A stretch of 64,000 nt of DNA. It comes from Eledone cirrhosa (lineage: Eukaryota). The notes under the pieces are model-generated. The model did no database searches. It saw only the letters and a program-made list of their open reading frames with translations, and was not told the DNA's origin. The position numbers and the translations under genes are program-made. Shown here piece after piece: positions 4,458 through 55,841 of this stretch. Positions within the stretch are counted from its first letter, which is position 1. Each line of letters begins with the position of its first letter. The stretch covers positions 263,004,001-263,068,000 of the forward strand of contig OZ024743.1 of assembly GCA_964016885.1 (NCBI GenBank), read 5' to 3'.

Positions 4458-4498
<41 letters not shown>

Positions 4499-4505
<7 letters not shown>

Positions 4506-4745
4506 GAAAACGAAAAATCAGTGATGCATCGGAACTCAATTTATTGTGTGTTACAATTGTCTCCCCGGCGAACAGCTCGAGGTGTGATCTGTGTGTGGAT
4601 CGACTTGATTCTGGATTCGCAGGTTCCTCGGACACGTCTATTGATTTCGGAGCATCCGAAATCAATAGTAACACACCGGGGAAACAATTGTAACACACAA
4701 TAAATTGAGTTCCGATACATCACTGATTTTTCGTTTTCCATTCTA
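4499..4745. mobile_element. Short inverted-arm element with a decayed HHR on the minus strand (4548-4635) and an HHR 3' half in the right arm
   Basis: Inverted arms of about 70 bp. Minus strand: gtgt CCGAGGA acctgcgaa...ttcgccggg GAG ACAATTGT A acac. The right arm retains GAAACAATTGTA. Confidence 0.6.
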
Positions 4746-4894
4746 TCATATTCTGCTCCGTAGGAGCATAGAGTGCTCGACCGGCATACCGCGTATGGAA
4801 GCATCTTAGCTACCATTAGAGAGAGAGAGACACACACACACACATAATTTAAAACAATGAAATAAAAAATCAAGTCATTAGAGATATACTTCAC

Positions 4895-5022
4895 TGCTTT
4901 ACGATCGTTTCTAGATGGTGATAATACATTGTATCTATACTCAGTTATTGATCTATGTAAGTTTACAAACTATCAGATAGAGAGAATATTTACTTGCATA
5001 TCACCAGCTGTTTTCAAAAGCA
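4895..5022 (-). ncRNA. Hammerhead with U3-A8 core and long stem II (mirror copy)
   Basis: Reverse complement of 5335-5466, with the same TTGAAAA core. Confidence 0.7.
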
Positions 5023-5334
5023 ATAATAATTTTATTCAATAATAATTTTACTCAGAACTAGTAGCATGTTAGTATCATGTCTTTATTTGGGGATAGTTGA
5101 AGAACTAACGAATCAAATTGTTTTTTTTTCATATGGTGTTAAGATGAAAAGTAATACACTCCTTCAACCATTCCTTTCAAAGGGTCATGACCGCAACTAA
5201 AGTGTATTACTTTTCATCTTAACACAATATGAAAAAAAAGAATTTGATTCGTTAGTTCTTCAACGACCTCCAAATAAGGACATGATACTAACATGCTACT
5301 AATTCTGAGTAAAATTATTATTGAATAAAATTAT

Positions 5335-5466
5335 TGCTTTTGAAAACAGCTGGTGATATGCATGTAAGTAAATATTCTCTCTATCTGATAGTTTGTAAAC
5401 TTACATAGATCAATAACTGAGTATAGATACAATGTATTATCACCATCTAGAAACGATCGTAAAGCA
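5335..5466 (+). ncRNA. Hammerhead with U3-A8 core (TTGAAAA), 79-nt loop II and palindromic stem III
   Basis: tgctt TTGAAAA cagctggtgata [79 nt] tatcaccatcta GAA ACGATCGT A aagca. Confidence 0.7.
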
Positions 5467-5649
5467 GTGAAGTATATCTCTAATGACTTGATTTTTTATT
5501 TCATTGTTTTAACTTATATCATGACTCTGTTTTCCTTTTAATGTTTTATTGTTTTCTGATATTTATCTTAACCTACAACATTTTCAACATATGGATTATA
5601 TCGAGTTCTTCATGCAGAATAGACCCCACAACTTACTGTGGATACCTCT

Positions 5650-5685
<36 letters not shown>

Positions 5686-20326: not shown

Positions 20327-20380
20327 TCCGCAGTTGACAATGCATATACTGCTGAAACCGGTACCATTATTAAATGCGGA
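20327..20380 (+). ncRNA. Possible U3-A8 hammerhead
   Basis: g TTGACAA tgca tatac tgct GAA ACCGGT A c. Stem I is weak: 1 bp, then tccgca/tgcgga after a bulge. Confidence 0.4.
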
Positions 20381-42568: not shown

Positions 42569-42699
42569 ATTGCTCTACAGAATGTTTTCTTCCTCAGCTC
42601 TCGACTAGAAATTTCAACGATTTCGATATTTTCCACCAGTGTCACTTCCTCCGGTGTTGCCAAGAAGCATTGATCTTAATAGGGAACATCCAGCATAAC

Positions 42700-43547
42700 C
42701 AAGAACCTGGTAAAAACGTTTCTTTGAAGCTTTCCCGTCTATCTACTAACGAGCATATTTTCAACGACCATTTCACATATTACAATGAAGCTCTTGCTCG
42801 GAGTGGATTTGTCGATAAGATAGCATATACAGAGTACGAGTATAGACCTAGAAAAAATAGATCCCGACGCATTATATGGTATAACCCACCATATAATATG
42901 GAGGTGGCCACACCATTAGCTAAGATCTTTCTCTCCCTTATTATGAAGCATTTTCCCCCAACACATAAATATAGTAAAATTTTTAATAGAAATACCATTA
43001 AAATATCTTACTCTACGACTCCTAACCTTGCACATAACATCACAGCTTCACATTTAGCTAAACTACCTAGCCGTAGGAACACGTGAACCCTGTAGTTAGT
43101 ACTAACTGCAATTGTAGGAATCGGGTTGACTGCCCCCTATCCGGGAAATGCCTCTCTAGTAACATTGTCTACAAATGTAAGGTTGAAACACCCACGTCCC
43201 GTAGGGACTACATAGGGTTAACCGCCAATAGATTCAAGCAGCGTGTTTACATGCATACCCATTCTTGTTTTAACCCTTTAAGAAGGAATATGAGGTCACT
43301 TTCAGCTTATATCTGGAGTCTAAAAGACAACCACACCCAATATAAGTTACACTGGGAGATCCTAGCTAAGGCTAGATCGTATAACGGAAATAAAAGACCA
43401 TGTGACCTCTGCGCCGCTGAGGCCCTGGAAATACTCTACGCCAAAGACCACATCTTAAACAAAAAATCTGAGGCAATTTCGGCTTGTAAACATAAATTGC
43501 ACAAAACATTCCTGTATTACAGCCCCACATTATACCCTAACGGATAG
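42700..43547 (+). pseudogene. Penelope-like (Naiad-type) RT thumb and GIY-YIG endonuclease, frameshift at about 43083
   Basis: IIWYNPPY…KHFP…KIFNRNTIKISYS, CNCRNRVDCPLSGKCL, IVY…YIG…FKQR…H, CDLC..E…LN. Confidence 0.88.
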
Positions 43548-44567
43548 TACGAGCTATACGCGGATATTTTACGTCTTGATGTGGTAGCTAAGTATATGTT
43601 ATGTTTATACCATTACTTACTTGTATAGGTAAGTATATATTACATGTATGTTTTGTGAAGGTACGTATACTTTCTCGTACGTACATTTGATTGTATATGT
43701 TATGGCGTATATATTATATATTCTGGTACATATGCATTTGGTTATGTGTATACGCGAGTTTTGCGTCTGTGTGAGTATGCGGGTTCGTACGTATGTAGGG
43801 TATGTGTATATATGTACTTTGTGTTTTGGTTGACGTACGTCTCCGAACATATGTGTATTTACATGTAGGTATGTGTGTGCGCGCGTTATATACGTATTTA
43901 TTTATTTATATATGTATACACGCACACACACTCATATATATATATATATATATTTTTTAATATATATTTTTATGTGTATTTGGTGTATACATTCGTATGT
44001 GTGCGGGTACAGCCGTCGCGTGGGTTCTGTATGTGCGTGCGGGTTTTTTTGTGTACGTGCTTGTATTTGTATACCTATGGCGAGTGTTTTCGTGTATGCT
44101 TGTGTATATACGTATATGGATGCGTGTATGTATTTATTTAATTTCAATTACCTCTGTATTTTATTTACTTTATTCTTAACTCTGAAGCCGAGAATCATTC
44201 GGTTTCCTAGTTAGAAATTTAGTCTATGACTTCAGTTATACCATTTACGTAGTTTTGTCTTTGCGTGCAATTGTTCTCCCCGATCCACATAATGACGTAT
44301 TATCTTCGTTTTTTCCGTTCATTGCCACAGAACGTCTCCATGAACCACCCAATAGGGTATTAGTCTACGACTTCTTTTATACGATAAACGTGGTCTTGCC
44401 TTTGCGTGTAATTGTTTTTCACCGCTCCAAATAATGACGTATTATCTTCGTTTTATCCCGTTCTTTGCCAGGGAACGTTTCCATGAACCAGAGTATCGTC
44501 TTCCTGTCTTCCTCCGGTTGCAACGCTTTTTGAAATATTTACTTCTGCGTTCACAGATTGACTTTTT

Positions 44568-44618
44568 AGTTTCAGAAGATCCCGTTAAGGGTGAAAGCAG
44601 CGATTCTTTGCTTAAACT
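44568..44618 (+). ncRNA. Hammerhead with U4A at the 3' pseudo-LTR of this PLE
   Basis: agttt CAGAAGA tccc gttaa gggt GAA AGCA…TGCT T aaact, followed by AATAAA and (TA)n. Confidence 0.6.
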
Positions 44619-44725
44619 TTAATATGTTATTTTAATAAATATTTGCTCTACGGTTCTTATATATTTGATATATATTTATCCTTATCGAGCCCTCTTTGGA
44701 TTTTAGTCTTCAAATTTATTATTAT

Positions 44726-45905: not shown

Positions 45906-46036
45906 ATCATTTTACGATCGTTTCTAGGATATATATGTGTGTTGGTATGTATATCATATAGATCTATGTAAAAATATTACAAACTATCAGAGGAAATATA
46001 CATACCTTCACATATATATGCTGTCTTCAGAAATGA

Positions 46037-46037
<1 letters not shown>
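45906..46037 (-). ncRNA. Canonical-core hammerhead with a 99-nt stem-loop II; relative of 5335-5466
   Basis: atcattt CTGAAGA cag…cta GAA ACGATCGT A aaatgat. Confidence 0.8.
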
Positions 46038-51298: not shown

Positions 51299-53599
51299 TG
51301 TGTGTGTATGTTTTAGCAGAGATTAAGTATTCTGTTCATCTTGAATCGTTCTTTTCTTATTTTTAGCGAAATCTCAAAGCCGATGATAAGAAAATTAAAG
51401 ATGACTGTAGCAGACGATATTACATATCGGATTGATATTGATATTTGAATTAGATTATTACATGTGTTGTTTTTATAGATGTTGTGACTCAACATTTACC
51501 CTCAGGGCTTTTTGCCAGTATCTCACATCATTATCTATTCCTTTGTTACAGAATGTGGTAAACAGAGTCGGTTACTTGATCTTTTTCCAAACCAAATATT
51601 TGTCGAAATCAATTCTCCCGAATTCTAGAAAATGTCTCTCCCAAATCTACATACATTCCTTATCTTGTGCCTTGACATATCGACCTATATTACGGCTCCC
51701 TAAGCTTAAATATTTTGGCCGTGTACAGAGAAATAAGAATCGACTACATTGGTTAGTATACCGACATACTATTGACTCGACCAGCTGCCACTCCACCAAT
51801 TGCCATATCAGAAGACATGTTTAGTGTCTACGCAGTTCTTTTTGTGATATTGATGACCATAGAAATAGATCCATGGAGGAATTAAGCTACTGTTATGCGG
51901 TCAAAATTTCAGAGAAATCTACGATAGGTACGTTAGAACGTCGGTTAGACTGCTTTGCGGTATTCGTTCTGGATTCCTGCACTCATCTCGCCAAGGTCAG
52001 CTTCTCCCTTCATATTTTTGAGGTTGATAAAATAGTACCGATTCAGTACGGACACCAGTCCTTCTATACATTTCTATACATTTCGCACTTCTTCTCTATC
52101 ATTCTCATTCCTTATTTAAAAAAAAAAACCCAGCTGCTTTACGATCTGGAGAGAAGACGGCTTCCGCTAGGTTTAAAAATGCCCAAGAAGCACTGCCATC
52201 ACGACTCCATCAGGAGTTACGGGTTGAGAAAAAGAAGATAGGCACAAGGCCACACATTTTAAGTAAGGTGTGTCGTCAATTTCATCGTTCTCAGTACTTT
52301 ATTTATGGAATGAAGCTGTGATAAACGATAAAGCCAGTTTTGACAGGATTTGAATTTCGAATGTAAAGAATTGTAGTTAAACACCACAATACATTTTATT
52401 TGTCATTCTACTGATTTAGTAGTCTTGGAGTCATTGGTTTCTGGCATTGGCACAAGACTATACATTTTTTGTGGGGGTGGGGGGTGAGGTGGATATATTC
52501 TTAGCATTTTATTATTATACCATTAACACGAGGGCGGTGGATAGGCAGAATCGTTAGAGGCATCGGACGAATGCTTAGCAGTATTTGTTCTGGCTCTTTA
52601 CGTTCTGATTTCAAATCCCGCAGAGGTCAACTTTGACTTTCATCTTTCCAAAGTGAATGAAATAAAGCACTAGTTAATTACCGATGCCGATTTAATCAAT
52701 TTTTCCTTTCTTTCAAATTATTGGCGTTGTGCTTTGTGCCTATAAACTATTATTATCCCATTAACATCTAGGATGTATTATAGGAATATAAATATATTTC
52801 AATACTTGTTTGGTACTTTACTTTATATACCCAGGAAGATAACCATGTCGAGATTTGAACTCAAAATTAAAAGACTATAACTGAAAAAAAATGCATATAT
52901 ATATATTTCTAATTTCAAACTCGGTCGCTGTTTCAAAACACACTAACTTGTCATTATACTTGCTAAGAATATAGGTTCTAATTTCAATAAAAGGGGATGG
53001 GTGATGTGTTGGTGTAAGCACAGTGGTTTGAATAATCAAAGATGTGGGTTCGACTCCTATGTACGTCAAAACTCATCTTTTTTTTCCATTTCTTAGAGGG
53101 TTCTAAACTCCACTATCAGGCTAACATTTTCTTTAGTAAAAAATACGACGAAAGCTTCTAATTTCACACACACATACACTCGTACATACATATATACACA
53201 CATACACACATATATATAGCTATGTTCGAAGCTAAATTCTAATTATATATATATATATATATATATAGTAATAGTAATAGTAATAAATTTGAAGACCTAA
53301 ATCCATATATATATATATATATATATACGCACATACACACACATATATAGCTATGTTCGAAGCTAAATTCTAATTATATATACATATACATACATACACA
53401 CGCGCACACACATATATATAGCTATATTCGAAGCTAAATTCTTATTCTCTCTCTATATATGTATATATACAAACACATACGCACATTCATACGTACACAC
53501 GCCTGTCTATGTATGTATGTATGTATGTATGTATGTATGTATGTATGTATGTATGTATGCATGCATGCATGCATGCATGCATGCATGCATGTATGTATG

Positions 53600-55168: not shown

Positions 55169-55258
55169 TCCTCGACTACGTAGTTTCGTGGCATAATCAA
55201 AAACAATACATCATAGAGATATAGAGCTTCTGTGAGGTCTGCCGACTTATCAAGAGGA
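55169..55258 (-). ncRNA. Hammerhead with U3-A8 core (mirror copy)
   Basis: Reverse complement of 55752-55841. Confidence 0.75.
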
Positions 55259-55751: not shown

Positions 55752-55841
55752 TCCTCTTGATAAGTCGGCAGACCTCACAAAAGCTCTATATCTCTATGAT
55801 GTATTGTTTTTGATTATGCCACGAAACTACGTAGTCGAGGA
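55752..55841 (+). ncRNA. Hammerhead with U3-A8 core (TTGATAA), 46-nt loop II and palindromic stem III
   Basis: tcctc TTGATAA gt(c)ggca [46 nt] tgccac GAA ACTACGTAGT C gagga. Confidence 0.75.

Follow-up and report, generated by a model that had tools for sequence, protein, structure and literature searches.

The hammerhead motifs of two sister families of Penelope-like retrotransposons (PLEs) in Eledone cirrhosa carry either a U3-A8 or a C3-G8 core, each fixed within its family, and we consider it likely that selection on active elements has retained this pair in a ribozyme that cleaves itself weakly and probably as a dimer. Positions 3 and 8 pair with each other in the conformation in which the hammerhead is catalytically active. 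Fold anatomy, family-level fixation, a link to an ORF of the RT plus GIY-YIG type and recurrence in other families are observed directly. The window, i.e. the whole 64,000-nt stretch of DNA that was analysed, contains the core UUGAAAA in a motif at 5333-5468(+) and in its mirror at 4893-5024(-), and the core CUGAAGA in a homolog at 45906-46037(-). The cores TTGAAAA (5335-5466 and its mirror) and CTGAAGA (45906-46037) are thus present where the initial annotation had placed them. The motifs and their surroundings comprise:

5333-5468 (+), type I hammerhead motif whose core has U3-A8, cleavage being predicted 3′ of A17 (5461)
5333-5339/5462-5468 (+), stem I of the plus copy
5340-5346 (+), core UUGAAAA, with U3 at 5340, N7 at 5344 and A8 at 5345
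5347-5449 (+), stem II arm with long loop, containing an 8-bp helix (5351-5358/5438-5445)
5364-5408 (+), candidate 45-nt GT-AG intron with donor GTAAGT, branch-like CTGAT at 5385 and acceptor TTACATAG
5450-5453 (+), GAAA of the plus copy
5453-5460 (+), palindromic stem III ACGATCGT (in RNA letters ACGAUCGU)
4893-5024 (-), mirror U3-A8 hammerhead, core at 5017-5011
45906-46037 (-), C3-G8 hammerhead of the sister family, with C3 at 46030 and G8 at 46025
46005-45964 (-), candidate 42-nt intron of the C3-G8 homolog
5163-5652 (+), 5′-truncated pLTR of the U3A8 family (right arm), 3′ end at a (TA)n run
4855-5160 (-), inverted 5′-truncated pLTR (left arm), ending ~55 nt past the predicted cleavage site

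The letters of the hammerhead core (N3-UGA-N7-N8-A9 together with G12-A13-A14-A15.1, U16.1 and H17) are present. The mirror equals the plus copy over 5333-5505 apart from one 4-nt deletion, which takes out the candidate intron donor. Both belong to one insertion with an inverted 5′-truncated pLTR, and the mirror is no independent evidence. The homolog, a solo pLTR, has its 5′ end at stem I, adjoining (TA)n, and is 68-72% identical to the plus copy (blastn). The two motif types share GAAACGATCGTA, the loop motif and the downstream tail, as had been described. The cag and cta letters of the stem II base are likewise shared, but the first position of this base is a C10.1-A11.1 mismatch, followed upward by 2 bp, a C-Y mismatch and a helix of 8-10 bp. 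The C-A base occurs in 41/41 sampled copies of each family, a count largely fixed by the extraction pattern. A search of Rfam with 4800-5640 at E≤10 gave no hammerhead among 14 matches, and with the whole window none among the 150 matches listed of 166. The Rfam miRNA matches were rejected as due to the inverted repeat and microsatellites.

Judging from diagnostic motifs, both motif types sit in pLTRs of high-copy Hydra-clade PLEs. Two hammerhead-linked proteins, P0007 and P0001, consist of an RT followed by a C-terminal GIY-YIG-type domain and possess the CxCx5C linker, CxxC and CxH. The RT N-terminus contains DKT and MRW in the U-family tandem copy L143 and VRW in the C-family copy L102; RW and DKT also occur in an intact relative of 821 aa. 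Tandem or inverted pLTRs, 5′ truncation and (TA)n insertion were all seen, and element units measure ~3.8-3.9 kb. In the window, the insertion is a pair of truncated pLTRs whose head-to-head arms are 91.7% alike over 687 columns. Its right arm includes sequence that precedes the ORF in L143, positions 5461-5652 having 97% identity to the hammerhead-to-ORF-start stretch of that copy. Among the 20 loci fetched via the U-family endonuclease domain, nine carry the U3A8 hammerhead 750-1435 nt downstream of this domain on the same strand. Searches of the ORFs against Pfam, NCBIfam and PDB returned no relevant match, and a protein search found four unnamed relatives. The Hydra-clade PLEs described by Craig et al. 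2021 (PMC8557442) share RW, DKT, the CxCx5C linker, CxxC, CxH and the C-terminal GIY-YIG-type domain, as well as (TA)n targets, a pLTR hammerhead and an inverted 5′-truncated copy. In contrast, the units reported there are shorter than 3 kb, and the four Hydra hammerhead rows examined from file S2 of that paper are all C3-G8 with short loops.

The best 150 U-family endonuclease matches contain no intact ORF, the longest open frame being 483 aa, so that the U family may be extinct. P0002 (L103) was rejected as the RT of the U3A8 family, as it comes from a different young C3G8 family with the palindrome ATGCGCAT; a U3A8 copy is nested in the (TA)n end of this young element. A young Hydra-type family (L189:1277-3739, L190, L191) has intact 821-codon frames in ~3.9-kb tandem arrays, a C3-G8 hammerhead and the palindrome ATGCGCAT, and its many near-identical copies suggest that it was probably active recently. 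The window itself holds another 5′-truncated Hydra-type PLE at 42684-44720(+), with RT-thumb and endonuclease coding sequence at 42760-43526 and a long UTR. At 44573 it has a hammerhead-like motif whose core reads CAGAAGA and whose stem III is a true, non-palindromic one. AATAAA lies ~20 nt upstream of the core in copies of both focal families that are linked to an ORF (window 5314-5319; same offset in the C family); it may be a signal for polyadenylation or have arisen by chance in AT-rich sequence.

According to the modelled folds, the motif is most likely a dimer-type PLE hammerhead. As a monomer, stem III has a pair probability of 0.01, and the palindrome as an intermolecular duplex reaches −10 kcal/mol. 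The monomer hammerhead fold lies above the MFE by 3.2 kcal/mol (U) and 4.6 kcal/mol (C), and in the U3A8 MFE the core mispairs with the stem III strand. The palindrome, as a putative stem III, resembles that of published dimer-type PLE motifs (PMC4209133, PMC6765202), for which Cervera and De la Pena 2014 (PMC4209133) report low activity and as dimers only. Position 10.1-11.1 is occupied by C-A in place of a G-C pair. The usual R10.1-Y11.1 closing pair is conserved, not obligatory. U-U is tolerated (PMC3088659), and T-T occurs at this position among the listed Hydra hammerheads (PMC8557442 supplement).

We propose that the pLTR promoter would start the RNA just before stem I and that two copies would associate via the palindrome of stem III, perhaps with assistance from the protein of the element. 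The paired copies would be cut after GUA, cleavage acting on a fraction of the transcripts. Only elements with an intact 3-8 pair would have founded amplifying families, and inserted copies would decay neutrally afterwards. The 5′ end lies at most 25 nt from the core in 9/15 U copies and 9/12 C copies (the latter including two mirror pairs), the denominators being pattern-selected copies with a 5′ end less than 200 nt from the core among 30 U and 23 C copies examined. Copies thus begin upstream of the hammerhead and retain all of it, which would fit transcription starting shortly before stem I and an RNA that serves as template without having been cleaved; RT stalling or microhomology might be an alternative source of these ends. 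In a C3G8 subfamily (L104, L071, L072 and others), an unrelated repeat end lies directly upstream of stem I, apparently captured and then amplified together with the element. The many '-7' ends behind this shared repeat were not accepted as independent junctions, since they mark a single subfamily; its copies were counted as long copies in the 5′-end and 3′-end tallies. The 3′ ends form two groups, ~50-70 and 180-200 nt past the cut site, similar to the two RT starts of the anole PLE studied by Frangieh et al. 2024 (PMC11167929). In that element, C3G and G8C are reported to abolish cleavage and the double mutant to regain it partly. Cleavage is reported there to need protein, and no reads to end at the cut site.

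The catalytic letters G5, A6, A9, G12-A14, A15.1-U16.1 and a non-G 17 are common to both families, and the helices turn over. This argues against the rival explanation that the fold serves some function other than catalysis (in RNP assembly, as a promoter or as a splicing context), with the 3-8 pair holding the fold and cleavage in vivo being negligible. The sharing of letters is partly imposed by the search pattern, yet it is present in similarity-selected copies too. The 3-8 pair, moreover, belongs to the conformation in which catalysis takes place. The C10.1-A11.1 mismatch and the weak monomer fold speak for a non-catalytic fold, as does the derivation of copies from RNA that still held the whole motif. 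Other PLE hammerheads do cleave in vitro (PMC4209133, PMC11167929), but hammerhead mutants of the anole PLE leave insertion in vitro unaffected, i.e. insertion needs no cleavage there (PMC11167929), and Naiad PLEs are described as thriving without canonical hammerheads (PMC8557442). On balance, we regard a purely structural role as unlikely, and selection for the pair of a self-cleaving RNA as the better reading.

Family-level fixation is evident from a census across the 3.0-Gb genome with an exact pattern, positions 3, 7 and 8 being free, in which counts are lower bounds. It gave 4883 matches versus none for the reversed control, which excludes a chance origin of the motif. The 3/8 state was C3G8 in 3804 matches, U3A8 in 858, U3G8 in 48 and C3A8 in 44, with other letters at 3 or 8 in the remaining 129. 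According to the letters after the core, U3G8 occurs on the C-family background in 46/48 cases (seven of which are one local cluster) and on the U-family background in 2/48; for C3A8, these values are 36/44 and 8/44. Expressed as shares of the parent family, U3G8 reaches 1.2% (C) and 0.2% (U), and C3A8 0.9% in either. The matching transitions have background rates of 0.8-1.0% in samples of 41 copies from each family; the inclusion of anchored columns makes these values slightly too low. The 5′ junction supplied position 3 in 5/30 fetched single-state loci. Single-state copies lie at, or under, a decay background of about 1%, and the picture is one of two fixed families plus decay. It had been considered in advance that CTGAAGA might be the consensus, with U3 and A8 arising independently; instead, the two letters are co-fixed in 858 exact copies and the singles occur at decay rates. 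N7, the free core position, varies in the U family (27 A and 13 C among the 41 sampled copies), and A8 is invariant there. The C3G8 and U3A8 counts reflect one switch between two sister families, and the table alone therefore cannot show selection. Since it counts one event, a 2x2 table at the level of copies was discarded as a measure of covariation.

Stronger evidence for constraint comes from other families rather than from the focal copy counts. A scan of 1.0 Mb of fetched loci with positions 3 and 8 free detected 249 distinct motifs versus one in the reversed control. Its 12 clusters with at least two copies divide into 8 C-G, 3 U-A and 1 mixed, and its 15 singletons into 10 C-G, 2 U-A and 3 mismatched. 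We dropped one C-G cluster composed of deletion derivatives of the focal family, took the mixed cluster as U-A (5/6 related motifs) and added one U3A8 family that the scan had missed for its short stem I. The adjusted tally of sampled hammerhead families is 7 C-G and about 5 U-A, and no family has a fixed mismatch (Fisher p=0.0013 assuming independent families; the families are related and two were chosen by design). A second U3A8 family (L169-L188) has 2400 U3A8 matches versus about a dozen G8 copies, the G8 search having yielded 35 matches in all and 48 in the control. In the RT tree (16 rows), the two focal families are sisters with support 92/97, and they are so weakly in the tree of the endonuclease (40 rows, with 9 near-duplicate or wrongly linked ones dropped). 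A single clade of all U3A8 rows is rejected by the RT tree (p-AU 0.005). Thus, the 3-8 pair changed at least twice among the four families on the tree, where one row with a long branch represents the second U3A8 family.

Stems I and II covary between the focal families, with pairing kept. In stem I, for which divergence with retained pairing had been claimed, changes are two-sided at two pairs and one-sided at two; in the 8-bp helix of stem II, six are two-sided and one is one-sided. These pairs were counted by hand-anchoring on the core because the MAFFT alignment A1 misregisters stem II; in the C family, this helix consists of a simple AT repeat. Another rival idea is that one family's founder acquired two common transitions accidentally and carried them along as it amplified, their complementarity being a coincidence. 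In its favour, C>T and G>A rank with the most frequent changes in the sampled copies, as the initial annotation had cautioned, the focal comparison is a single event and the genome is AT-rich. The idea is nevertheless largely refuted and very improbable, given that all of the about 12 families have a Watson-Crick pair at 3-8, that this pair changed independently at least twice, that no family has a mismatch fixed there, and that hammerheads of schistosomes and others are reported to show this switch too (PMC4209133, PMC3088659). The earlier proposal that the variant core is selected for catalysis holds in so far as the pair is constrained (~12 Watson-Crick families, at least two changes). That this selection acts on catalysis rather than on the fold would go beyond these data; a related element inserts in vitro without cleavage, and the comparison of the two sequences is a single event.

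Further hammerhead-like motifs turned up in these searches. The second U3A8 family has a canonical GCCC/GGGC stem II, the palindrome ACGTACGT and only ~2 bp of clear stem I. An inverted pair in the window, 55174-55253(-) and 55757-55836(+), belongs to another U3-A8 family present in several loci, with core TTGATAA, palindrome ACTACGTAGT and C17. At 20334-20363(+) lies a small U3-A8 hammerhead-like motif of a further family (TTGACAA, palindrome ACCGGT). A hammerhead-like C3-U8 motif (CTGACTA) with long stem II and palindrome ACCGTACGGT was found in one place only (L090:2873, minus strand) and is probably a decayed copy.

The U3-A8 core switch is an already published natural variant, and the motif would function in the manner of known PLE hammerheads. 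Natural covariation is described by Perreault et al. 2011 (PMC3088659) from C3-G8 to U3-A8, stated to be active in vitro. U3-A8 is rare in that report, with several examples, whereas here it is found in ~5/12 sampled families and in thousands of copies. Starting from a PLE, Cervera and De la Pena 2014 (PMC4209133) found ~1,300 U3-A8 motifs in Schistosoma and noted that the variant is missed by the standard descriptor, in agreement with the earlier suggestion that CUGANGA searches would overlook it. The minimal hammerheads of Schistosoma mansoni (Cercyon PLE; PMC4209133) share with our motifs U3-A8, the PLE link, type I topology and a long helix II. They differ in having G-C with a 5′ bulge at 10.1-11.1 instead of the C-A mismatch; here, moreover, the arm within helix II measures ~100 nt and an 8-nt palindrome makes up stem III. 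With the core switch known, the main value of our observations is practical. Descriptors with fixed CUGANGA would overlook over 3,000 of the hammerheads in this genome (858 and 2400 exact matches in two families), and the sister pair provides a ready natural test set for the question whether PLE hammerheads are selected for cleavage.

The letters of loop II further provide a lead, namely that part of it may be a GT-AG intron. Splice-like signals are common to both families (donor GTAAGT in U and GTATGT in C, YTGAT and TTACATAG). The candidate intron is mostly 42-49 nt long in sampled copies, and its donor lies ~31-33 nt after the inferred transcription start. As counterpoints, such an intron would be very short, and an inner hairpin can explain part of the loop conservation. 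None of the 27 short-loop genomic copies lacks exactly the 5364-5408 stretch, which is uninformative since PLEs retain introns in genomic copies (PMC2377424). Three contig runs from one sample contained no joint across 5364-5408, which is evidence neither way. The pLTR of Drosophila virilis Penelope (Schostak 2008, PMC2377424; Cervera 2014) likewise combines an internal promoter, a short intron and a hammerhead in the repeat. Its intron is reported to be 75 nt long, to begin 46 nt after the start and to end at helix I, whereas the candidate of 42-49 nt lies inside loop II. If real, the loop II intron would place splicing within an arm of a ribozyme, an arrangement for which a limited literature search found no precedent; a PLE intron abutting helix I is published. 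It is conceivable, if doubtful, that a start at stem I, a 42-49-nt intron in loop II and a dimer-dependent ribozyme are combined within 135 nt, so that splicing remodels the ribozyme and could switch cleavage, with the 3-8 pair flipped repeatedly among co-resident families. In the same tentative scheme, the unspliced template would have the long arm and the spliced mRNA the short arm.

Two neighbouring features of the window complete the inventory. Positions 4494-4750 are MITE-like, with terminal inverted repeats of ~75 bp (96-97% alike) and an inner inverted repeat, and adjoin the left arm of the pLTR pair. A weak tRNA match at 53003-53068(+), 30.7 bits versus a gathering threshold of 29, is probably the head of a SINE.
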